This document shows positions 1-43,624 of a DNA stretch of 43,624 nucleotides, in pieces. Made by a program: the position numbers and the translations under genes. Where the stretch lies: positions 1 to 43,624 of the forward strand of contig CAITPB010000255.1 in the NCBI GenBank assembly GCA_903894145.1. The letters run 5' to 3'. The notes below the pieces were generated by a model. That model was not told where the DNA came from. It was given only the letters and a program-made list of their open reading frames with translations, and searched no databases. The stretch is from Candidatus Firestoneibacteriota bacterium. Lineage in GTDB: Bacteria > Oederibacteriota > D2-FULL-39-29 > CAIOVX01. Each line of letters opens with the position of its first letter. Positions within the stretch are counted from its first letter, which is position 1.

Positions 1-495
1 AAAATAGGGAATAATCTTAAAACAATCATCCACATCAAGTTCCGGAACAAGCCCCAGTTCTTCGACATGAAGAAGAAGCCCGTGTTCCCGCCTCCACTTC
101 ATAACTCCGCGCGCCTTGGTTGCCGCGTCTTTTAGTCCAAGTTCCTCGAACATCCTGCGCATCAGAAATTCCGAAGCGGTATTTATATTTGCCTTGCTTT
201 TCTCGTCCTCTATAGTAGCGGTGTAGACTCCCTCCCCGAATTTGACCTCCTTTTTTCCGCTGTTAAGCGAATTTATGCCGAGGAGATTTGAATACCTGTT
301 CTGAGCGCGGTTGGTTTCAAATACCATTGTATTGGCGCCGGCCTTGGCAACATAGAAGGCTTTTACCCGAAGCTCATAGTTTTTAACCGCCCTCTGTTGG
401 AGCTTAACGTAAACTGTCAGCCCGGCCGAAACCACCATAAGTATTGCGGATATCCAGAGAGCGGCCATGGCTATGTAGCCTCTTTCGTTCTTCAA
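1..495 (-). CDS. gspK: Type II secretion minor pseudopilin GspK-like; runs off the left edge of the window
   Basis: Not in the ORF track; translated by hand from TTG at 495 (after GGGGG RBS): MKNERG|YIAMAALWISAILMVVSAG...KAFYVAKAG...IEDEKSKANINTAS...VEELGLVPEL. It has a prepilin-like leader lacking Glu5, the GspK 'IxDExxKxNIN' motif, and follows gspJ. Confidence 0.85.
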   Translation of the reverse strand, partial: MKNERGYIAMAALWISAILMVVSAGLTVYVKLQQRAVKNYELRVKAFYVAKAGANTMVFETNRAQNRYSNLLGINSLNSGKKEVKFGEGVYTATIEDEKSKANINTASEFLMRRMFEELGLKDAATKARGVMKWRREHGLLLHVEELGLVPELDVDDCFKIIPYF

Positions 496-510
496 AAAGC
501 CCCCTAGACC

Positions 511-767
511 AAAATTCGAAAAAGCAAACTCGAAATTCGAATTACTCTGCGTCTTGTGATCAAGAACGCCAAGAATAAGCACCAGATCTCAAATCGCAAG
601 CACCAAATAAGCATCAAAAAAACAAAACAGCAAGAAGCAAAAAACAAAACTACCCCGAAACGAGCCAAAACTTTCTTCTTTTATGTTTATGTGTTTATTT
701 GTGATTTGGAGCTTGGGATTTGGTGCTTCCTCCCATTTCGAATTTCATGTTTCAGACTTCGGATTTG
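511..767. repeat. Two nested inverted-repeat hairpin cassettes with 7-nt periodic arms
   Basis: Outer arms ~511-543 (aaattcg aaaaagc aaactcg aaattcg) and ~735-767 (revcomp aaatccg aagtctg aaacatg aaattcg). Inner arms ~578-616 (aagcacc agatctc aaatcgc aagcacc aaataa) and ~695-728 (revcomp aagcacc aaatccc aagctcc aaatcac aaataa). Confidence 0.85.
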
Positions 768-769
768 CT

Positions 770-1468
770 TTATCTCTCGTATGCCACCAGATTAACACAC
801 GATTCCAGGACCGCGTACACCGGCTTAACACCATAGCTTTTCGCCGTAACCTTAAAATTGACAATCTGAGGGAGCAAGTTATGATAATTATTGCCTCTCG
901 CTTTCATAAGAGAATAAGTGTCCCAGCTGTCAACCCAGGACTGCTTTTTTCCGTCGTAATAGGAAAACACTATCGCGGTAATATTCTCCAGAACTTCATT
1001 TTCCTCGTTTTTCCAGGGCGCGGTCGCGAAATCCCAGACTGAGCTTCTTTGAAAACAGGCCTCAACCCCTTCAGACGTCGAAGCCGGGCCATACGTAACT
1101 TTGGCCCTATACGACCTTCTGGGGAAATACTCCGGCCAGTAAAGAGTGACCGGTCTGGAATAGGTCATTACTTCCACAGAAACCGCCGTACCTTTAAATC
1201 CGAAATAATTCCGCTTAATCAGCGCCGATGTATAACCGGAGTTTTTGCTAAAAAAGACCGGTTCCGAAGCTCCGGTGGACCTTAAGTCCCTGGTTAAGTT
1301 TTTTACCATGTTGCGTGCCGAAAGATAGGCCTCACATTCTTTGCGATAATTGTCGTATGCACCCAGCCCCGCGGAAAAAGCGGCGTACACCCCGGACATT
1401 ATTATAACTATAATCCCCAGGCCTACCATCAGTTCAAGTAACGTATAGCCGCGCTCTCTCAGTTCCAA
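770..1468 (-). CDS. gspJ: Type II secretion minor pseudopilin GspJ-like
   Basis: N-methylation motif RG|YTLLELMVGL; C-terminal 'FSYYDG...WVDSWD...LPQIV' is typical of GspJ; position in the H-I-J-K order. Confidence 0.8.
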   Translation of the reverse strand: MELRERGYTLLELMVGLGIIVIIMSGVYAAFSAGLGAYDNYRKECEAYLSARNMVKNLTRDLRSTGASEPVFFSKNSGYTSALIKRNYFGFKGTAVSVEVMTYSRPVTLYWPEYFPRRSYRAKVTYGPASTSEGVEACFQRSSVWDFATAPWKNEENEVLENITAIVFSYYDGKKQSWVDSWDTYSLMKARGNNYHNLLPQIVNFKVTAKSYGVKPVYAVLESCVNLVAYER

Positions 1469-1851
1469 TTCTGCACCGCCGGCTGCCTCGTAACAAAGAG
1501 GCTTTCCAGGCTTAAGGAACGGTCAGCCCCCCGCGCCTTATAGGCAACCCTCAGTTTAATGTTTATAAGCGAATAAAAATTGGTCCTTTGAACAACTGCT
1601 GATTGCTGTGACCAGGAAAAGCCCGGCCAGTCAGCCCCGAAGTCTCCTGACTCTGAAGCCTTGAACGCGTCCCGCCCGCCAAGCTGCTCCATCTCTTTCT
1701 GCGCGAGCGTTACCGCTATGCTTTGCTTTTTTATCTCTTCGACCGCAGCAAGCCCTGCCGCGACAGATTGAAGAGCCGCGACTATCACAATGCTCAGTAT
1801 CGCCACTCCGACAAGAGCCTCCAGAAGTATGTAGCCATGATTATTTTTCAT
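1459..1851 (-). CDS. gspI: Type II secretion minor pseudopilin GspI-like
   Basis: HG|YILLEALVGVAIL leader; 'LAQKEMEQL...ESGDFG..WPGFSW'; 130 aa. Confidence 0.8.
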   Translation of the reverse strand: MKNNHGYILLEALVGVAILSIVIVAALQSVAAGLAAVEEIKKQSIAVTLAQKEMEQLGGRDAFKASESGDFGADWPGFSWSQQSAVVQRTNFYSLINIKLRVAYKARGADRSLSLESLFVTRQPAVQNWN

Positions 1852-2365
1852 AGTTCAGTAATTTTACCGTCCCGGTTGTTGCCGCGAAAACCAGTGTATA
1901 AACTTCCCCTTTTGCTCCTGAGAGCACCACGAAACCGCTTTCAGAACTTCCATCCGGGTAGAAAGTTATGTAATCCGGCGCACCTGATGCGGCTGCCCCG
2001 GATAAGGATCTCGGCGTATTCAAGCTCTTAATGGCTACTTCGCTGATTAGAACTATCTGCTTTACATCAGCCGTCACTTCGTACTGCATAGTAGCCGGGT
2101 TCATTCCGGATAGCGTTACGGTGTTTGCTCCCGGGTCAAAAGTCACGCGGTAATTTACCCCTTTTGCTTCTGCCAAGTTTCTAGCCAGGTCAGACATCCC
2201 TGCAGATTTCACAGCCTCTAAATAGGCCTTTTTCGAGGCATAGAAATTCCCGAACCAGATTGCGAGCACGGCCGTCATCGATATTATTATCGATACGACG
2301 ATGAGCATTTCAACAAGCGTGAATCCGGGGTTATTTGTTCTCTGACCAGTTCGTAATATCCGCAT
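1841..2365 (-). CDS. gspH: Type II secretion minor pseudopilin GspH/FimT-like
   Basis: PG|FTLVEMLIV leader; 'ITFYPDGSS' motif near the C-terminus; directly follows gspG. Confidence 0.8.
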   Translation of the reverse strand: MRILRTGQRTNNPGFTLVEMLIVVSIIISMTAVLAIWFGNFYASKKAYLEAVKSAGMSDLARNLAEAKGVNYRVTFDPGANTVTLSGMNPATMQYEVTADVKQIVLISEVAIKSLNTPRSLSGAAASGAPDYITFYPDGSSESGFVVLSGAKGEVYTLVFAATTGTVKLLNYEK

Positions 2366-2768
2366 CAGGCCCCTGCCCGCCTTCCTTTCCGTCTCTGCCG
2401 TAAGAGCAGAGATCGTATCCGTTGGGATTATTCAGGCCGGGACACATATAAATGTATGTACCGTTCCAGGGATCGTTTCCGACCCGTTTCTTTATATATG
2501 GACCTTTCCAGCTGGTTGGAACCGGCTGGCTGGTCGGGGCGTTATAGAGCGCGTCCAGTCCTTGCTCGGTCGTCGGGTAAAAACCGTTATCCGCCTCATA
2601 GGCGTCGAGGGCCAGCTCCATCGTGGCAATATCAGACTTTGCCGCCGCTATCCTCGCGTCTTCGGTCCTGCCGAAGAACCGAGGGGCAAGGGTTGAGGCG
2701 AGGATGACGATAATTACGACGACTGTAAGGATTTCGATTAAGGTAAATCCTTTTTCCTTCTTAAACAT
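2331..2768 (-). CDS. gspG: Type II secretion major pseudopilin GspG
   Basis: KG|FTLIEIL leader; YPTTEQGLDAL, WKGPY, DPWNGTYIY, and the SYGRDGKEGGQGPDADITNW Ca-binding tail; GGAGG RBS. Confidence 0.97.
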   Translation of the reverse strand: MFKKEKGFTLIEILTVVVIIVILASTLAPRFFGRTEDARIAAAKSDIATMELALDAYEADNGFYPTTEQGLDALYNAPTSQPVPTSWKGPYIKKRVGNDPWNGTYIYMCPGLNNPNGYDLCSYGRDGKEGGQGPDADITNWSENK

Positions 2769-2784
2769 ATGGCCTCCAAATTTA

Positions 2785-2880
2785 CGTTTATAACGTTTGT
2801 AACGTTCTTAACGTTTATAACGAATAGCACAAATGCTTTACGTTACAAACCTTACAAACGTTATGAACGTTATAAACCGC
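2785..2880. repeat. Hairpin cassette with 9-nt periodic arms (copy B1)
   Basis: Left arm cgtttataa cgtttgtaa cgttcttaa cgtttataa cg (2785-2822); 18-nt spacer; right arm cg ttacaaacc ttacaaacg ttatgaacg ttataaacc gc (2841-2880). Confidence 0.9.
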
Positions 2881-3989
2881 TATTTAACAATCGAACTCAA
2901 TCCCAATATCGGAAGCAGCACCGCGATTACTACAAAACCCACGCCCACCGCCATGACCAGTATCATGATAGGCTCCAGAAGAATTACAATCCTTCGCGTG
3001 GTCATCTCCATCTCTTTCTCGTAGTAAGCGGCTACCCTGCTCATAACATCCTCAAGTTTACCGGTTTCTTCCCCGACCTGAATCATCTGGATGATAGTTT
3101 TGGGAAAGAACGGTACATCTTTCAAGGCCAGGGAGAGACTGGACCCCCTCTCCACGCTTTTTGCCGCCGCCTTTATGTGCTTGGAAAGGACCGCGTTGCC
3201 GATAGTCTCGCCGGTAATTGAGAGCGCCTGCAGCATAGGGACCCCGCTTCCGGCCATTATGCTCAGAGAAAAGGAAAACCTCGTCAACAGGGCCTTCCGC
3301 ATTGCCGTGCCGAAAAGCGGAACATAGAGTACTGCCGTGTCAATTACCTCTCTTCCATTTTCCGTGCGTGAGTAGCGCGAATAAAATATTGCTCCGGCCG
3401 CAACTGCCGCAAGAATCACCCACCAGTAACCCGTAAAGAATGAACTGATGCCCATAAGTATCACGGTCGGAAGAGGGAGCGCCTGTTTGAATTCCGCGAA
3501 GAGCGTAACAAAAGTTGGAAGTATAACGGCCAGAATGAAGACCAGCACGGAAATTCCGACAAATAGCATTATCATCGGGTAGATCATCATCGTGGATATC
3601 TTAGACTGAAAATCCTCTTCCCATTCAAGCTGGTCGGCATACTTGGCCAGCGCCTTCTCGAACATACCGGTGACTTCTCCAACTTTGATGAGCCCTACCA
3701 TAAGCGGCGGAAAGGTTTGCGGATATTCGGACAAACATTCCGAGAAAGGAGTCCCGCCCTTTATCTTGTCTTTTATCTTTCCAACTATGCCTTTAAGCCT
3801 GGACTCTTCCATGCTATCCCAGAGTGTATTCATCGCCTGGTATAGCGGAACCCCTGCTCCGGACATAGTTGCCAGCTGCCGCGTGAAGGCGCTCAATTGC
3901 CCCACGCTCACCTTAGGAACATACAGGGAATTAAGCCGTTTGACGGCGTCTTTTATGGTAGCAAGCGCGCTCTCAGCCAACGTCTTCAT
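2880..3989 (-). CDS. gspF: Type II secretion inner-membrane platform protein GspF/PilC
   Basis: FTRQLATMSGAGVPL, VGEVTG, MIYP, MIQVGEETGKL, LLEP. The start may be TTG at 3980, which is better spaced from AGGAGG. Confidence 0.95.
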   Translation of the reverse strand: MKTLAESALATIKDAVKRLNSLYVPKVSVGQLSAFTRQLATMSGAGVPLYQAMNTLWDSMEESRLKGIVGKIKDKIKGGTPFSECLSEYPQTFPPLMVGLIKVGEVTGMFEKALAKYADQLEWEEDFQSKISTMMIYPMIMLFVGISVLVFILAVILPTFVTLFAEFKQALPLPTVILMGISSFFTGYWWVILAAVAAGAIFYSRYSRTENGREVIDTAVLYVPLFGTAMRKALLTRFSFSLSIMAGSGVPMLQALSITGETIGNAVLSKHIKAAAKSVERGSSLSLALKDVPFFPKTIIQMIQVGEETGKLEDVMSRVAAYYEKEMEMTTRRIVILLEPIMILVMAVGVGFVVIAVLLPILGLSSIVK

Positions 3990-5487
3990 CCTCCTGCGTG
4001 ACCTTTATAACTTCGTCAATGGTAGTAATGCCTTTTCTCACGCGCTCAAAACCATCGTCGCGCAGGGATCTCATACCGAACTCTCTCGCCTTATTCTTTA
4101 TATCACCTGTCATTGAGTGTTCCATCACCATTTTTTTCAGCTGCTCGTTCATCGTAAGCAGTTCGTAAATCCCGCTCCTTCCGTAATAGCCGGTGTTAAG
4201 GCATTTCTCGCAGCCCGTTCCTTTCATAAACTTGTCGCCGGGTTTTCTCTCAAATCTAAAATCCGCCAGATGGTCGTTGCCGGGATCATAGGGCTTGCCG
4301 CAGCTGTCGCACACAACGCGTACCAGCCTTTGCGCCATTATCCCTATGACTGAAGAAGCGACAAGATAGGGTTCTATCCCCATGTCAATAAGCCTTGTTA
4401 TTGAGCCCGCCGCGTCATTGGTGTGGAGTGTGGCAAAAACCAGATGGCCTGTAAGCGAAGCCCTTATAGCTATCTCCGCAGTCTCAAGATCCCTGATTTC
4501 TCCAATCATTATGATATCCGGATCGTGCCTCAGAATGTGGCGGAGTCCCTTTGCAAAGGTCAACCCGATTTTTGAATTTACTTGTATTTGGTTTATGCCT
4601 GAGAGGTGATACTCAACCGGCTCCTCAACAGTTATTATCTTCACGCTTGCCGAGTTAATCCTTGAAAGAGCCGTATAGAGGGTGGTGGTCTTGCCGCTGC
4701 CTGTCGGGCCTGTCACAAGGAAGATTCCGTGAGGCCTTGCTATAATGTTCTCAAAAGCTTTGTGCGTGTCGGGAAGCATGCCGAGCTGCTCCATACCGAA
4801 CAAGATACCTGCCTTGTCAAGTATCCTCATTACAACTCCCTCTCCGTAAAGGGTCGGGATAACAGAAACACGGCAATCAATCTGTTTGCCGCCTGCTTTA
4901 AGCTCTATCCTTCCGTCCTGCGGCAGCCTGCGCTCCGCAATATTCATCTCTGACATAATCTTGATTCTGGAGACTATCGCCCCGCGAAAATACTTTAGTT
5001 CCGCCGGCATCGGGACATCGCGCAACACGCCGTCAACGCGGAATCTGACCTGAAGCTCCCTCTCGAAGGGTTCCAGGTGAATATCGGTAGCCCTTTCTTT
5101 CAGGGCTTCCAGGAAAAGCTGGTTAACAAACTGGATGACTGAGGCGTCCTGAGCCATAGCGGTCTCGTCTATCTGCTCCGCTTCAGGGCCGGATCTGTCA
5201 AGAGACGCCCCGCTTTCAGCTATCATTCTCGCGACAGTATCGGCCCCGACCCCGTAATGTTTCTTTATGGCAAGCGTAATTTCTTCTTCCGGTGTTTCAA
5301 GAGGGGTTACCGGCTTATTAAAGATGAGTCGAATTTCATCAAGGACCTGAAGATTGTGACGGTCTGTTACGGCTACAACTACCGCGCCGTTTTCTTCTTT
5401 GACAGGAATTGCCTTGAATTTATTCGCGAACTTCAGGGGAAGCTTGGCGATAAGCCTTGTGTCAATCTCGATGTTGGAGAGCTTCAT
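3973..5487 (-). CDS. gspE: Type II secretion ATPase GspE/PilB
   Basis: ATDIHLEP, RRLPQDGR, Walker A GPTGSGKTT, EEPVEY, LRHDPDIIMIGEIRD, TGHLVFATLHTN, and a tetracysteine motif. Confidence 0.97.
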   Translation of the reverse strand: MKLSNIEIDTRLIAKLPLKFANKFKAIPVKEENGAVVVAVTDRHNLQVLDEIRLIFNKPVTPLETPEEEITLAIKKHYGVGADTVARMIAESGASLDRSGPEAEQIDETAMAQDASVIQFVNQLFLEALKERATDIHLEPFERELQVRFRVDGVLRDVPMPAELKYFRGAIVSRIKIMSEMNIAERRLPQDGRIELKAGGKQIDCRVSVIPTLYGEGVVMRILDKAGILFGMEQLGMLPDTHKAFENIIARPHGIFLVTGPTGSGKTTTLYTALSRINSASVKIITVEEPVEYHLSGINQIQVNSKIGLTFAKGLRHILRHDPDIIMIGEIRDLETAEIAIRASLTGHLVFATLHTNDAAGSITRLIDMGIEPYLVASSVIGIMAQRLVRVVCDSCGKPYDPGNDHLADFRFERKPGDKFMKGTGCEKCLNTGYYGRSGIYELLTMNEQLKKMVMEHSMTGDIKNKAREFGMRSLRDDGFERVRKGITTIDEVIKVTQEDEDVG

Positions 5488-5492
5488 ACTTC

Positions 5493-5503
5493 TTTATACC
5501 ACA
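5493..5503 (-). promoter_or_regulatory. Extended -10 promoter (TGTGg-TATAAA) 5 nt upstream of the gspE ATG; probable leaderless start
   Basis: Minus strand reads ttaTGTGgTATAAAgaagtATG; no SD at normal spacing. Confidence 0.55.
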
Positions 5504-5632
5504 TAAGAGGACGCTCCTTTTGACACAAAACAGGAAGTCTTTGTCATTAGACCATTTCTAAGCTGCAAAGTTTCAAAAGACCTTACAGGACCTAAACATT
5601 AAACAATTGGAGGGGAACTTCCTTCAAGCTAT

Positions 5633-5755
5633 GCGGTTTATAACGTTACTAACGTTTGTAACGTTAATAACGAAAACAAAAGGCACCACTACCCCACAAC
5701 ATCTGAATACCAAACACTGCTTTACGTTATAAACGTTAAGAACGTTAAAAACGTT
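5633..5755. repeat. Hairpin cassette with 9-nt periodic arms (copy B2)
   Basis: Left arm gc ggtttataa cgttactaa cgtttgtaa cgttaataa cg (5633-5672); right arm cg ttataaacg ttaagaacg ttaaaaacg tt (5725-5755). Confidence 0.9.
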
Positions 5756-5763
5756 ATTTTGCT

Positions 5764-5829
5764 ATGCCGGACGAAGTACGGCATTATCAATATCCTACCT
5801 CACAAAACAGGACACACGAAGTGTGGCCT
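5764..5829. repeat. Two 21-nt REP-like palindromes sharing the core ACGAAGT
   Basis: ATGCCG-G-AC-GAA-GT-A-CGGCAT (5764-5784) and AGG-A-CACAC-GAA-GTGTG-G-CCT (5809-5829). Confidence 0.55.
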
Positions 5830-5853
5830 ATAAACCTTAAGAACTTTTGTCTT

Positions 5854-8055
5854 TTACTTTATCCCTTTCTTCCACACCCCTCCGCCAAAAGTCGCCACAT
5901 ACATATCTCCGCCTTCGTAATCAAAAAATATCCGCTGAGGGGAAGCAAACGGGAAGTCAGTTTCGGACCACGAGGCTCCGCCGTCAACACTTTCCAGCAT
6001 ACCTCTTCCCTCTGTGGTCAGCAGGATGTGTTTTGTATTCCGCGGGTCTATGCAGGGCTTGAACGGATATATTACTTTTGGGGAAATATCCTTGGTCAAA
6101 TTCTTCCAGGTCTTCCCGCCGTCAACAGTCTTAAAGACGCCTCCATAATTCACACCTTTCAGACTGCCCATTGCGGTTAAATAAATAGTATCAGGATCAT
6201 TCGGGTCTATGTCAAATTCTACTGGCCAGAGAAGCAAAGTTCCGTCGCACTCGCTGGCTACCAGTTCCCAGTTTTCGCCGCGGTCTTTTGATCGGAAGAG
6301 CCCCCCGGGCACCGGATAATCGTTCGTGCCCTTGATCCTGTGCGCAGTTATGAGGCAATAGAGAGTTCCTTTCCTGTCTTTCGCTATCGTGTATACATCC
6401 GTATTGTCTGAAGCCATTTTGTGGTCAGACCTATTTTTCACAACCAGACCGTTGGACTTCTTAACCCAGGTCTTTCCTCTATCCAAGGACTTATAAACTC
6501 CGTCGGAATACATCACCGCGTAGAGCGCGTTATCCGTCCGGTCAAACAGCAGTTTGGTACAGGCCACCTTGGGAAGACCGTCCGAGACTACTTTCCAGGT
6601 CTTCGCGTAGTCGTCGCTTCTTAATACGCCGCCTGGATATTTTGCGCCTTCGCAGTTTGACCAATGGGGAATATCGTGCTCGTTGGAAGCCGCACCGTAG
6701 ACAACACCGGGGGTGTCAGGGTCAAAAGCCAGGTCATAGACCGTGTTCAGCCAGGCGCTCCCGGTTATCGCGATAGACCAGCTCTTACCAGAATCTTCGC
6801 TCCTCGCAAAACCTATATCGGTATAGCAGATGTAATGAATATTCTTTTTATTAGGATCAATATAATAATTCCAACTGGAGGATTCTTCCAGACCGCGCGT
6901 CTGCCATGCGGCCCCTTTTATCGGGGTTCCTTCCTGCATCAGTTTCGTGTAGGAGTAGTTCCAGCTCTTTCCCCCGTCAAGCGTAACCATAAGTTCGCCC
7001 ATCCCGCAGCCCGCAAGAATGTCAGGATTAGAGGGGCAAATGTTTGTACCCTGTGTAAGCGGCCCTGAATAGCCCTTGCCGAATTCGTAGGTTATCCAGC
7101 CAAGTTTGACATTCTTGTAATTGTCAGGTTTGAAGACGTTCTTCCAGGTATTCCCGGAATCTGTTGACTTGTAAATATCGAAAATATCCCTGTTTGTGAC
7201 ATAGACGGTATCAGGGTCGGATTCCGCCGTGTATAACGCGAAAGGGTTTGGCGCGGTTCTTGCCCCGGCAGGAGCAATATCCCAGTTTTCACCCCTGTCT
7301 AAGGAACGCCAGAGGTCAGTTCCCGCAAGACAATAGAGCGCGCATTTTCCCGCAATACTGCCTCCCGAGAAACTTTTCATCTCAGGTTTTTTGAGCTTTG
7401 AAATCCAGGTCTTTCCTCCGTCATCCGAACGGAAGATGCCATTCCTGGTGGCGGCAAATATCGCTTTGCCGAATTTGCTCCCGCTCTGATCAATAAGGAA
7501 ATTCAGCGTGCTGCCGGAAACGCCTTCGCAGGCTGCCCAGGTCGTACCTCCGTCCGCGCTTATAAAAGATCCCTTATCTGTTCCAAAAAGCATGGTATCC
7601 GGAGTTTCCCTGTCCAAGTAGATCTTAAGCACCCGGTCGACTGAGGGCATTTTTTCCGCAAGGATGCTCCAGGAGGAGCCGCCGTCTCTGCTGACTCTGA
7701 TACCGTAGGCGTCTTTAAAACTTCTTCCGGCGCAGTAAATTGTTCCGGCTTCCTTAGGGTGAAACACGGGAGTTCCCGGCAGTATGCCGTTCAACTCTTT
7801 CCAATCCACAGTTTTCCAGGACTTCCCATAATCAGCGCTGACATAGAACCCTGACATATCCCCGCCAAGAACCATTCGTGAAGGATCAACCGGAGAAATT
7901 GCCAGGGTTTGCATTCCTGCGGACTGTCCTATCCCTGTCTCGACCCACGCCGGCCCGGATTGCGCGGACGGCGAAATGCAGCACTTATTGCCGGCGCAGC
8001 CTGAGAGGAAGAGAAGTACAATAACCGGGAAGAGCAGGGACATTTTCGTAAACAT
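5854..8055 (-). CDS. BNR/Asp-box repeat double beta-propeller lipoprotein, GH74/VPS10-like putative glycoside hydrolase
   Basis: Lipobox LSG-C; 13 (S/T)xDxxxxW Asp-boxes; GGDMSGFY and YTDIGF resemble the two GH74 catalytic-Asp motifs. Start chosen at ATG 8055 after GGAGG. Confidence 0.75.
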   Translation of the reverse strand: MFTKMSLLFPVIVLLFLSGCAGNKCCISPSAQSGPAWVETGIGQSAGMQTLAISPVDPSRMVLGGDMSGFYVSADYGKSWKTVDWKELNGILPGTPVFHPKEAGTIYCAGRSFKDAYGIRVSRDGGSSWSILAEKMPSVDRVLKIYLDRETPDTMLFGTDKGSFISADGGTTWAACEGVSGSTLNFLIDQSGSKFGKAIFAATRNGIFRSDDGGKTWISKLKKPEMKSFSGGSIAGKCALYCLAGTDLWRSLDRGENWDIAPAGARTAPNPFALYTAESDPDTVYVTNRDIFDIYKSTDSGNTWKNVFKPDNYKNVKLGWITYEFGKGYSGPLTQGTNICPSNPDILAGCGMGELMVTLDGGKSWNYSYTKLMQEGTPIKGAAWQTRGLEESSSWNYYIDPNKKNIHYICYTDIGFARSEDSGKSWSIAITGSAWLNTVYDLAFDPDTPGVVYGAASNEHDIPHWSNCEGAKYPGGVLRSDDYAKTWKVVSDGLPKVACTKLLFDRTDNALYAVMYSDGVYKSLDRGKTWVKKSNGLVVKNRSDHKMASDNTDVYTIAKDRKGTLYCLITAHRIKGTNDYPVPGGLFRSKDRGENWELVASECDGTLLLWPVEFDIDPNDPDTIYLTAMGSLKGVNYGGVFKTVDGGKTWKNLTKDISPKVIYPFKPCIDPRNTKHILLTTEGRGMLESVDGGASWSETDFPFASPQRIFFDYEGGDMYVATFGGGVWKKGIK

Positions 8056-8111
8056 CGTACCTCCGCAAAACATGACACCTTGTTTATATTATACAACCGG
8101 GAAGGGCCCAT

Positions 8112-28975: not shown

Positions 28976-28992
28976 AAAGCCTCCTCATTAAT

Positions 28993-29132
28993 CAAATCTC
29001 AAATCACAAGCACCAAACCCCAAATAAAAACAAAAAAAACAAACCACAAACTGACCCTATAATTACTTGTATTTTATCCTTTTTTGTTCTTTGGTGCTTA
29101 TCTGGCGCTTGGTGCTTGTTATTTGGTGCTTG
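28993..29132. repeat. Hairpin cassette with 7-nt periodic arms (same family as inner element 578-728)
   Basis: Left arm aaatctc aaatcac aagcacc aaacccc aaataa; right arm revcomp aagcacc aaataac aagcacc aagcgcc agataagcacc. Confidence 0.88.
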
Positions 29133-29137
29133 TTTTA

Positions 29138-30208
29138 TTAATACTTACCCAATTCCTTCGCCAGCCTCATAAACTCCTGAAACTGCGTCAGGGACACGCT
29201 GTCAGGAATAGAATGATCGGTTGCGACAATATAGCCGCCGTTCTTTTTCATCATCGGAATTAAGTGCCGCATTTCGTCCCACATCACCTGCGGTATTTTG
29301 TAGGACATCGCGTTTAGCCCGCCCATAAAGGTCAGCTTATCGCCAAACTCTTTCTTGAGCTTCTCCGGATCCATGCCGGCCTTGACTTCAAGCGGATTGA
29401 GAATATCAAGACCCATTCCGACAAGATCCGGAACAAACGGCATTATATCTCCGCAAGAATGCAGGTGCGCTTTCATTCCGTTGGCATGCGCGAAATCGAT
29501 GCATTGCTTGTGGAAAGGTTTGAGCAGTTCGCGGTACATGTCCAATGAGAAAAACTGATTGTACTTGTAGCCCATATCATCATACCAGAATACTTCGTCA
29601 AACTTATAGCCTTCGTCCAGAATGAGCTTTATCTGGCTCAGGTTCAGTTCAAGGTGTGTCTTAAACATATCCTGCATCCATTCAGGGTCCTCAACGAGCG
29701 CCATAAGAACCCGCTCCGTGCCTACCATCCATGAATGCGTCACATCAAATCCAAACCAGTTTACAAGCCCCATCCAGGCCCCTGCTTCCCGGTTCTTCTT
29801 ATAATTGGTCTTCAAATAACCCCATTCTATACGGTCCCTTGACGGCGTCATCCGCGCCTTTGCTTTTTCCCACGCATCGCGCGAGGTTATTGTAAAGTCA
29901 ATAAACTCGGGGGTGCTGCCGGCGTGCTTCCAGTTTTTCATAGTAACGCCCCATTTTGATTTCTTTATTATGTATTCCTCAGTTTCTTCAACCACTTCCT
30001 GCGGGTAACTCGGTGAATTGTCACAGATATGCCAGCGGCAGTATTTGTCCATACCAAAGAAGTCCTGAAAATCAGCGCCTTTCGGCATGCCTTCCCTTTC
30101 CCATCTCTCTACGGCTGTCGGCCAGGGATTGTCGATTATCGGGCAACGGTCAGCTTCCTTATGTTCAACTATCAATTTCACTCTCTCTCTTGTTGTCAGT
30201 TCTTTCAT
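29138..30208 (-). CDS. Uroporphyrinogen decarboxylase (URO-D)/MtaA-like family protein
   Basis: TTRERV...EADRCP, YDDMG, HLHSCG, LNPLEVKAGMD, FMGG, GGYIVATDHSIP. Not canonical HemE. Confidence 0.85.
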   Translation of the reverse strand: MKELTTRERVKLIVEHKEADRCPIIDNPWPTAVERWEREGMPKGADFQDFFGMDKYCRWHICDNSPSYPQEVVEETEEYIIKKSKWGVTMKNWKHAGSTPEFIDFTITSRDAWEKAKARMTPSRDRIEWGYLKTNYKKNREAGAWMGLVNWFGFDVTHSWMVGTERVLMALVEDPEWMQDMFKTHLELNLSQIKLILDEGYKFDEVFWYDDMGYKYNQFFSLDMYRELLKPFHKQCIDFAHANGMKAHLHSCGDIMPFVPDLVGMGLDILNPLEVKAGMDPEKLKKEFGDKLTFMGGLNAMSYKIPQVMWDEMRHLIPMMKKNGGYIVATDHSIPDSVSLTQFQEFMRLAKELGKY

Positions 30209-42939: not shown

Positions 42940-43542
42940 TTACTCTGCTTTCTTTTCTTTTTTCGCGTCCGGCTTTGCAGCCTTCTCATCTCCGCCGCCG
43001 TTGAGTTTCTCAAGATCATCCGCCCCAAGAAGCTGAACATTGCCTATGAAAAGAGGTCCTGTAAGTTTCCCGTTTATATTCCACTGTTTCAATTTCTTCT
43101 TCCAGTCTATCGCCGCGCCGTTATTGGCGCAGGCACCGGTAAGTTCAATCTCTATGGCATGCTTGCCGGGAGCAAACATAAGCGGCTGGTCAAACCTGCT
43201 CTGATAATCGCTTCCTTCAGGTTTTACAGTCAAAATAAGTCCCATCGGGGTTTTACCCGGGTTAACATACTCAAACCTTAAGAAATCAAAACCGTCCCAC
43301 ACGCCTTTTTTCGGCTGGTATTCTCCAAAGAACATATCTCCCGTAGGATAGGTTGCTGATTCGACTTTAAGGCTGACCCCGCCCTTGGTGAAAGCAGTCT
43401 CTTCGGAAAGATTTATGGTTATCGCGCCGCCCGTGTCATTCGGGAGTTCGCCTTTTTCAACATTCATTACATTCGCTTTTTTCGCAAAAGCCAAACCTGA
43501 AATCAGCAATATCGCCGCAAGAAAAACCATCATCTTTCTCAT
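42940..43542 (-). CDS. Secreted hypothetical protein, CBM/galactose-binding-like jelly roll, with a Lys-rich tail
   Basis: Signal peptide (AFA); 'GVSLKVE', 'WDGFDFLRFEYVNP' and 'LFIGNVQL' patterns resemble CBM-like domains; AGGAGG RBS. Confidence 0.55.
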   Translation of the reverse strand: MRKMMVFLAAILLISGLAFAKKANVMNVEKGELPNDTGGAITINLSEETAFTKGGVSLKVESATYPTGDMFFGEYQPKKGVWDGFDFLRFEYVNPGKTPMGLILTVKPEGSDYQSRFDQPLMFAPGKHAIEIELTGACANNGAAIDWKKKLKQWNINGKLTGPLFIGNVQLLGADDLEKLNGGGDEKAAKPDAKKEKKAE

Positions 43543-43584
43543 ACTGCCTCCTGTTTTAAATCATGACATTTAGGTAGAAACTAT

Positions 43585-43617
43585 TAACATGTTATACCAG
43601 TTCATTATACATTTCAA
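43585..43617 (-). promoter_or_regulatory. Sigma70-type promoter with a palindrome over the -10
   Basis: TTGAAA-N17-TAACAT; the perfect palindrome TAACATGTTA occupies 43585-43594. Confidence 0.5.
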
Positions 43618-43624
43618 CACCTTT

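Follow-up and report, generated by a model that had tools for sequence, protein, structure and literature searches.

The window analyzed here is the whole 43.6-kb contig C255 (43,624 nt) of a metagenome-assembled genome (MAG; G000) of Candidatus Firestonebacteria, and its subject is the 274-nt gap between a gspJ-like and a gspK-like gene of a secretion-pilus gene cluster. The minus-strand gene order is T2SSE, T2SSF, T2SSG, three pseudopilin-like genes (the last being gspJ-like), the gap, and the gspK-like gene. The gap is filled by a long imperfect hairpin that lies flush with the gspJ stop codon and the gspK ribosome-binding site, and within positions 496-772 outer arms of 7-nt words enclose a small side hairpin and a pair of inner arms with a different word set, between which lies a core that is A-rich and then T-rich (Table 1). 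G000 amounts to 1.88 Mb in 283 contigs (49% G+C, 87% complete), and the sequencing runs containing the stretch were freshwater and lake metagenomes. Relatives are referred to as G001, G002, and G003 (same genus) and G004 (same family, sister genus), contigs of G000 by C numbers, and other loci by L numbers.

Table 1. Coordinates of the gap element and the adjoining secretion-pilus genes in the window.
Feature	Position	Strand	Remarks
gspK-like gene, 5' part	1-495	-	TTG start at 493-495; truncated by contig end
Spacer and gspK ribosome-binding site	496-508	-	GGGGG, complement of 500-504
Outer arm (3' in gene sense)	509-545		Words AAATTCG / AAAAAGC / AAACTCG / AAATTCG, with TTCGAA palindromes inside
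Rest of outer loop	546-574		Includes small side hairpin (~549-570)
Inner arm	575-616		Words AAGCACC / AGATCTC / AAATCGC / AAGCACC / AAATAAG
Inner-element core (loop region)	617-689		A-rich, then T-rich
Inner arm, partner of 575-616	690-730		Reverse complement AAGCACC / AAATCCC / AAGCTCC / AAATCAC / AAATAAA
Outer arm (5' in gene sense)	733-769		Degraded in G000 specifically
gspJ-like minor pseudopilin gene	770-1468	-	Stop TAA at 770-772
T2SSG (gspG)	2331-2768	-	Pfam
T2SSF (gspF)	2880-3989	-	Pfam
T2SSE (gspE)	3973-5487	-	Pfam

Anatomy, Folding, and Coding Content of the Gap

An initial annotation, made from the letters of the DNA, had described two concentric pairs of inverted repeats in the gap, and both were recovered. 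The outer pair at 512-541/737-766 spans 30 nt with 73% complementarity, and a transition-tolerant self-alignment places the inner pair at 573-627/679-732, where 38 of 54 pairs are Watson-Crick and another 10 are transition pairs. An exact 11-nt inverted pair was also detected at 598-608/718-728. The arms also end where that annotation had placed them, against the gspJ stop codon and the gspK ribosome-binding site, and in the gene-sense fold the spacer at 496-508 remains unpaired directly 3' of the hairpin base. Its word formulas were looser, as AAAYYCG fits three of the four outer words and AARYNCC fits AAGCACC, AAATCCC, and AAGCTCC and fails for AAATCGC and AAATCAC. The inner arm at 575-616 exceeds its partner by one word, which appears in the consensus fold as an 8-nt bulge. 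A lag-7 autocorrelation of 0.43 was measured over the whole gap (reached by 0 of 2000 shuffles) and of 0.57 in the outer arms (reached by 29 and 8 of 2000 shuffles). Period 7 was not significant in the inner left arm alone (0.43; 752 of 2000 shuffles), and the autocorrelation of the inner right arm peaked at lag 8 (0.55; 83 of 2000 shuffles).

The + strand of 490-780 folded at -73.2 kcal/mol (z -5.41), a value matched by 0 of 200 shuffles, and the gene-sense strand at -79.2 kcal/mol (z -2.02), matched by 3 of 200. The prediction of the initial annotation that the gap folds better than its shuffles was thus clearly borne out for the + strand and modestly for the gene-sense strand, whose G+U-rich shuffles fold well too (mean -69.2 kcal/mol). 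No credible open reading frame (ORF) was found, as had been stated: no Pfam match at E<=1 was obtained for two ORFs in the gap (79 and 54 aa) or for a third (119 aa) that extends from the gap into gspJ antisense, and any reading frame in the gap is disrupted in the G003 ortholog, which has indels of 10, 2, and 1 nt and another 1-nt gap. Rfam gave no match at the gathering score in the whole window and none at E<=1 in 400-900, and a scan for sigma-70 promoters and terminators returned no site within the gap.

The gspJ-gspK Site in Relatives and Hairpin Loops as Landing Sites

Homologues of gspJ were found in 13 of the 61 genomes searched, G000 included, and the lengths of the gspJ-gspK gaps were taken from tblastn coordinates. 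The same composite occupied the site in all four genomes of the genus, with junctions of 274 nt in G000, 260 nt in G003, and 380 nt in G002, while the G001 contig stops inside gspK just beyond the element. The junction of G004 measures 45 nt and is without a hairpin, and in seven order-level genomes gspJ and gspK overlap by 11 nt or abut within a few nt. Neither the sister genus nor the order-level relatives therefore carry an element at the site, a presence/absence difference that the initial annotation had proposed to look for. The gspK start codon is TTG in G000, G001, and G002 and CTG at the same position in G003, and in the older relatives it is the ATG start of gspK that lies within the 11-nt overlap with the end of gspJ.

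Additional elements were found within the loops of resident hairpins. The greater length of the G002 junction reflects an extra insert of ~108 nt within the inner loop, at the left edge of the core. The loop of a 9-mer hairpin between gspF and gspG contains ~100 extra nt in G002 alone, and a heptamer hairpin is nested in the loop of the hairpin upstream of gspE in G001 and G002, with none there in G000 and G003. A third-level insert in G002 is represented by 97-100% identical pieces at the non-orthologous G000 sites C59 and C199, and the loop inserts belong to families that are multi-copy in G000. A 97-nt element at 5757-5853 is carried by G000 and G002 and is lacking from the other two genomes of the genus, G001 and G003, and its family matches ~30 G000 contigs at 75-90% identity, some of them in tandem. 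The presence pattern of the loop inserts disagrees with the gene relationships among the genomes of the genus. Hairpin loops are thus recurrent landing sites.

The hairpins concerned have features of their own. The gspF-gspG gap (2769-2879) is filled by a hairpin whose arms consist of four 9-nt words each, of the TAACGTTNN type with an AACGTT palindromic core, and a second 9-mer-armed hairpin lies upstream of gspE at 5631-5756. The latter has a left arm two words short in G001. The heptamer hairpin nested in it in G001 and G002 replaces the loop, and its arms resemble those of a PF05635 gene cassette on C189. The 97-nt element contains two small GC hairpins and is wedged into the word array.

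Word-Armed Hairpins Across the Genome

Tandem Repeats Finder (TRF) reported 1003 short arrays in the 1.88-Mb genome, with leading periods of 9 (333), 7 (143), 8 (96), and 10 (89). Non-coding DNA, which makes up ~9% of the genome according to crude gene calls, contained 321 of the 425 arrays with a period of 6-12 and at least 2.5 copies. A census of intergenic regions by self-alignment, with 5 of 637 regions excluded for exceeding 1500 nt, detected a hairpin scoring at least 40 in 155 of 632 regions compared to 10 of 632 mononucleotide-shuffled regions; the alignment often crosses the loop, so that loop lengths carry no meaning. This census superseded an earlier TRF-pair screen with strict scoring that had given 65 array pairs. 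The arms of 59 of the 155 hairpins reached an autocorrelation of at least 0.5 at one period, most often 9 (31 hairpins), 7 (16), or 8 (6).

Short-word BLAST of the gap against the genome matched the outer and inner arm sets to separate places. Other copies, which the initial annotation had anticipated, were found for both. Outer-type words (AAATTCG, GAAATCT) form short stand-alone hairpins on C199, C241, C64, C3, and C279, and inner-type words (AAGCACC, AAATCAC, AAATCTC, AAATAAA) do so at 28987-29138 of the window and on C150, C142, C220, and C190. Words in both orientations occur at ~9 loci of the genome for the inner set and ~12 for the outer set. Among 99 genomes of the phylum, the full composite was confined to the four genus genomes, where it lies at the orthologous site, and whole inner elements with 68-74% identity occur at other sites in G001, G002, and G003. 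The nesting can be considered real because each arm set also occurs alone elsewhere in the MAG and in relatives, and a nested insertion is the simplest reading of the two families in the gap. The idea of one element inside another, put forward in the initial annotation, is also in agreement with the orthologous loops that differ by whole small elements. The stand-alone inner-family copy at 28987-29138 has a conserved loop core in common with the copies on C150 and C142.

Relationship to PF05635 Four-Helix-Bundle Cassettes

According to the initial annotation, arms of this style often bracket four-helix-bundle genes in other genomes, and such bracketing was found in G000 and in relatives. Inverted word arrays flank two of the three PF05635 genes of G000, as 8-mers on C270 and as 7-mers on C189. 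Across the order, 47 PF05635 matches were obtained in 11 of 12 genomes and 30 of the loci were fetched; among the 29 with adequate flank, 17 had inverted arms scoring at least 40, five had shorter arms of evident words, and seven had none. A gene-less counterpart was identified at C243:1780-1985, a nested composite in which 9-mer outer arms surround a heptamer inner hairpin. Alignment of the inner hairpin with both ends of the C189 cassette continues past the arms and covers the first codons as well as the region of the stop codon, and the hairpin is the C189 cassette with its ORF missing. The nested hairpin upstream of gspE in G001 and G002 is of the same kind.

The inner pattern AAGCACCAAATNNCAAGCACC was scanned over 185,579 species genomes and gave at least 119 stretches in many phyla, and the outer pattern AAATTCGAAATNNGAAATTCGAA, which is close to one heptamer three times over, gave at least 120 stretches, also in many phyla. 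Random sequence would be expected to give ~4 inner and ~0.3 outer matches, a null that is too generous for tandem repeats and for the outer pattern especially. Among the matches listed, an inverted partner scoring at least 40 lay within 700 nt at 22 of 79 usable inner-pattern loci, and a partner scoring at least 36 was present at 23 of 80 outer-pattern loci compared to 0 of 156 shuffled flanks. The same loci were scanned with a four-helix-bundle hidden Markov model built from 23 of the 30 fetched cassette loci, from which partial, weak, and stop-containing loci had been left out. A match was found inside 6 of 80 inner-pattern loci, being adjacent to the pattern only at L234, and at one of 80 outer-pattern loci at a distance of 1.6 kb.

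Two loci in Deltaproteobacteria MAGs carry a PF05635 gene between inner-type words. The gene is intact at L234 (54.1 bits compared to a cut-off of 33.8) and frameshifted at L244, where it was noticed on visual inspection and its frameshifted pieces were then confirmed. Identity to the C189 protein is 44% for the L234 protein (E 1e-30) and, within G000, 26% for the C270 protein (E 0.016). As the likeness between C189 and L234 exceeds that between C189 and C270, the word set and the protein subfamily travel together. At L234:1998-2030 and in the C189 cassette (L075:1423-1470), the first codons of the cassette gene are built from arm words and encode Lys/Gln-rich N-termini, so that the repeat array extends into the reading frame.

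Origin and Fate of the Gap Element

The explanation favored here, with a probability of roughly 0.6, is that the gap holds two non-autonomous, hairpin-forming repeats made of 7-nt words, one lodged in the loop of the other, that entered in the ancestor of the genus and are carried as an RNA-folding passenger. The inner element (~575-730) would be a gene-less member of the AAGCACC/AAATCNC/AAATAAA family that brackets a PF05635 gene in other bacteria, and the outer element (509-545/733-769) would belong to the second family (AAATTCG/GAAATCT), which elsewhere forms short stand-alone hairpins. Insertion of the composite between the two genes would date to the ancestor of the Candidatus Firestonebacteria genus, where it split a pair that overlaps or abuts in older relatives, and the composite would since have been inherited or exchanged. 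The loops of hairpins already in place appear to be the preferred landing sites of new elements. The most likely mode of existence is one in which the element would be co-transcribed with the operon and would fold on itself into an imperfect duplex of ~90-110 pairs. Such a fold would join the gspJ stop codon to the gspK ribosome-binding site, and the insertion would be tolerated as a result. By analogy with the intervening sequences of 23S rRNA and the Correia elements of Neisseria, RNase III would probably cut or shield the stem, and an RNase III gene is present in the genome.

Several observations weigh against this explanation. No enzyme able to move the elements was identified, the cassette protein being a small helical bundle; from visual inspection of its sequence, the sole reverse transcriptase in the genome looks like the group II intron type. 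Nor could a target-site duplication be delimited for the gap element, because the empty sites do not align with its edges. The proposed homology of the inner element to a cassette draws on the words shared with L234 and L244 and of a weak core alignment (score 55, shuffle maximum 41). Outer-type arms were present on none of the 29 PF05635 cassettes of the order, and a PF05635 gene was adjacent at 0 of 80 outer-pattern loci among the matches listed. Since the outer family is without a cargo-bearing relative in the loci examined, a cassette origin of the outer element is unsupported. The view of the initial annotation that both elements are empty or decayed cassettes agrees with the sister family of C243 and C189 and with the inner words at L234 and L244, and is unsupported for the outer family.

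Further points of the same tendency concern structure. The reverse nesting, with inner-type arms around outer-type words, occurs on C225 and at L087, and the two sets are also found side by side; both nesting orders together with adjacency could reflect modular rearrangement of word arrays instead of discrete insertions. Wobble pairs were commoner on the transcribed strand (450 vs 362 pooled, p 0.002; 61 vs 42 per element, p 0.076), and this small excess is weak evidence that strand-biased mutation could also yield. The advantage of the gene-sense fold over its shuffles was modest, as noted above, and compensatory changes among the four orthologs numbered 0 of 93 consensus pairs. Finally, the core is 70/71 identical to G002 between flanking genes of 74-83% identity, which is not predicted for a purely selfish relic.

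Conservation and the Possibility of a Domesticated Spacer

The conservation of the element bears mainly on the alternative that survives best, which we regard as possible and clearly less probable than a passenger: a domesticated functional RNA spacer. Selection would keep the hairpin for processing, stability, or translation control; it would uncouple the two genes and would act with the gspF-gspG hairpin in setting the ratios of the secretion-pilus proteins. Compared to G002, the gap was identical at 255/272 positions (94%), gspJ at 518/696 (74%, with third positions at 48%), and gspK at 404/495 (82%). Compared to G001, the gap was identical at 263/274 (96%) and gspJ at 528/696 (76%), and the G001 contig ends after 11 nt of gspK. 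The third codon positions of gspJ are just 48-53% identical to G002 and G001. In 100-nt windows along the 43.6 kb, identity to G002 averaged 0.763 (sd 0.087), and the longest run at or above 0.92 was the element itself (446-768, maximum 0.98), with other top tracts at 5725-5918 and 43460-43624, the latter a promoter and signal-peptide region. By segment, the matches to G002 were 37/37 in the outer left arm, 28/29 in the side hairpin, 38/42 in the inner left arm, 70/71 in the core, 40/41 in the inner right arm, and 29/37 in the outer right arm, compared to 0.83 in the gspK flank and 0.74 in the gspJ flank. The arms of the gspF-gspG hairpin behaved alike (37/39 and 36/36, with flanking genes at ~80%). 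Metagenome contigs from four runs of four studies contained variants in which 31-40 differences in the gspK flank adjoin a nearly invariant element; record X6:20 spans flank and element, and X7:28 and X1:5 carry the element alone with 1 and 0 differences. Both the conserved loop and the way in which the hairpin abuts the stop codon and ribosome-binding site lean toward function.

Other comparisons argue against retention by selection. G003, the closest relative by flanking genes (gspJ 87.5%, gspK 91.5%), has a gap identical at only 214/260 positions (82%), with indels, a broken side hairpin, and divergence in the other outer arm. The degraded outer right arm of G000 reflects decay on the G000 side, as G001, G002, and G003 mutually agree there. 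The absence of compensatory changes speaks in the same direction, and the family copy at 28987-29138 is less conserved than its adjoining genes (arms 0.81-0.83 and middle 0.58 compared to 0.88 against G002). The sister genus and seven order-level genomes manage without the element. The 97-nt element comes and goes between species and is still identical to G002 at 96/97 positions, which shows that such transient elements can be near-identical too. In addition, G000 and G001 have blocks of 99% identity in coding DNA, such as 6701-7000, indicating recombination among lineages. The divergence of G003, the lack of compensatory changes, and the near-identical come-and-go element thus lean toward exchange of the composite between lineages.

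The relatedness of G001 to G000 is mosaic, with ~89% identity over 485-5654 and 76% in gspJ, and this pattern suggests either recombination or diversifying change in the minor pseudopilin. Joints at 610->694 and 619->694 in metagenome contigs (sides of 23-29 nt, 80% likeness) were considered as signs of excision and were set aside as paralogous copies or other organisms.

Active Homing, DNA-Level Action, and Other Possible Explanations

A bolder reading, which we hold to be doubtful, is that word-armed hairpins constitute an active cassette system spanning phyla, in which the arms would be homing or recombination sites and a four-helix-bundle subfamily would read the heptamer words that are its own, whether on a folded RNA or on a single-stranded DNA hairpin, and promote copying into loops. 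In that case, ongoing homing and not host selection would account for the loop-insert mosaic and for the near identity of the gspJ-gspK allele among three species. As far as sequence comparison can tell, active homing would be consistent with the pairing of a word vocabulary with a protein subfamily across two phyla, with the occurrence of at least 119 inner-pattern and at least 120 outer-pattern stretches in many phyla, and with the 97-100% identical inserts at non-orthologous G002 and G000 sites.

It is rather improbable that the element acts at the DNA level, with the arms serving as duplex or cruciform binding sites for a palindrome-reading protein or as recombination sites for swapping loops, and with RNA folding being incidental. 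Several families do have palindromic hexamers recurring in their words (TTCGAA in the gap, AACGTT in the 9-mer arms), arms are retained while loops are swapped between species at odds with gene relationships, folding relative to shuffles is better for the + strand, which is antisense to the genes, than for the sense strand, and the sense-strand wobble excess is weak. The inner words (e.g., AAGCACC) and many other families are, however, without a palindromic core. Hairpins are also scarcer in divergent spacers (8 of 63) than in co-directional (132 of 528) and convergent (15 of 41) ones, a distribution that fits transcribed spacers.

The element is intergenic, palindromic, and multi-copy, as expected of a repetitive extragenic palindromic (REP) repeat or its hairpin-forming REPIN doublet moved by a REP-associated tyrosine transposase (RAYT, a Y1 transposase), and the genome encodes one Y1_Tnp-like protein (C71:3926-4477, 184 aa, 31.8 bits compared to a cut-off of 23). 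This origin is nevertheless highly improbable, given that the C71 gene is bracketed on both sides by a distinct palindromic repeat of the GCATCAGCACTGC type in place of word arms, and that the arms in the gap are AT-rich strings of degenerate words and not short GC-rich palindromes. Chance is the least credible explanation: an A-rich then T-rich spacer predicts some pairing and sense-strand shuffles fold well too, but the + strand fold and the lag-7 periodicity of the gap were equalled by no shuffle, both arm families recur across the genome and in relatives, and the same composite is retained in four species.

Comparison With Known Systems

The ORF-bearing intervening sequences (IVS) of 23S rRNA in Coxiella burnetii and Leptospira are similar to the gap element in being inserts with complementary termini that form a long stem, and in their full form they contain a PF05635 (S23p) ORF in the loop (PMC4990558), as do the related cassettes on C270 and C189 and at L234. 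The Coxiella IVS is cut out by RNase III, whose cleavage falls midway along a 28-bp terminal stem, leaving the host transcript usable, and horizontal transfer of 23S rRNA IVS between species has been suggested (PMC4990558). The gap element differs in lying between protein genes and not in helix 25 or 45 of 23S rRNA, in having no ORF, in consisting of two nested elements, and in having arms of 7-nt words where the IVS has a unique 28-bp stem. No large IVS was present in the 23S rRNA gene of G002 (2994 nt compared to a model of 2925 positions), the sole assembled 23S rRNA gene among five genomes.

The gap element shares terminal inverted repeats, many genomic copies, and presence/absence at orthologous sites with miniature inverted-repeat transposable elements (MITEs). 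The Correia elements of Neisseria are likewise short, gene-less, multi-copy sequences with inverted ends that lie beside or between genes; they are co-transcribed with these genes, they bind RNase III, by which they are cleaved or protected, and they vary in presence between strains (PMC2649163). Unlike such MITEs, the gap element has no known transposase-bearing parent, the putative parent cassettes carrying a PF05635 gene alone, and its ends are tandem words of family-specific sequence, with no definable target-site duplication.

REP sequences, their bacterial interspersed mosaic elements (BIMEs), and REPINs also resemble the gap element, being extragenic palindromes that form clusters and mosaics and occupy operon spacers (PMC3116915). 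The gap element differs from the REP/RAYT system in having no cognate RAYT, the lone RAYT-like gene standing beside a different repeat, and in its AT-rich, word-built arms. REPs stabilize upstream mRNA.

The TAACTGA repeats of Beggiatoaceae are intergenic 7-nt runs that are abundant in some genomes and occur across distant phyla, and they are direct sets of a fixed heptamer, mostly located shortly upstream of start codons, with 169 direct sets compared to one inverted set (PMC4679880). In the gap element, by contrast, the words are degenerate and their arrays are paired in inverted orientation, giving a hairpin. Heptamers among the short tandemly repeated repetitive (STRR) sequences of cyanobacteria, and small dispersed repeats nested in other repeats, were reportedly described by Elhai and colleagues in 2008.

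Intergenic tandem heptamers are an old, unexplained feature of bacterial genomes, and diversity-generating retroelements are, to our knowledge, the only setting in which a role is known for the very large PF05635 family. The locus joins the two in one genome. In literature searches on these repeats and on PF05635, no description of tandem-word-armed PF05635 cassettes outside rRNA genes was found, and the two nested elements of the gap appear to be gene-less members of a widespread and apparently undescribed kind of mobile cassette. In a single place it brings together gene-less hairpins derived from gene-carrying cassettes, landing of elements in each other's loops, and word sets shared by more than 10 phyla. 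It is also a compact test case, as a 274-nt insert splits a secretion-pilus gene pair that once overlapped and is, compared to G002, better conserved than any gene of the 43.6-kb window. Two testable questions follow, namely whether such hairpins are processed by RNase III and whether they are selfish passengers or domesticated spacers.

Neighboring Genes

The gspJ-like ORF matched Pfam N_methyl above the cut-off and T2SSJ at 20.5 bits, under the cut-off of 28. The gspK-like product begins with the leader MKNERG followed by a hydrophobic segment, and its only Pfam match was a weak one to HHH_3 because the gene is truncated. A 739-aa gene upstream of gspE (5854-8073) was considered as a candidate secretin and rejected, since Pfam identified it as a BNR/Sortilin-Vps10 repeat protein, and no secretin was found among the six genes at 1459-8073 checked against Pfam. 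Gene calls for the genome were crude codon-score calls that missed at least two genes of the window. At the far end of the window, 165 nt at 43460-43624 are 100% identical to G002 against a background of 76%, covering the start and upstream region of a gene whose N-terminus is signal-peptide-like.

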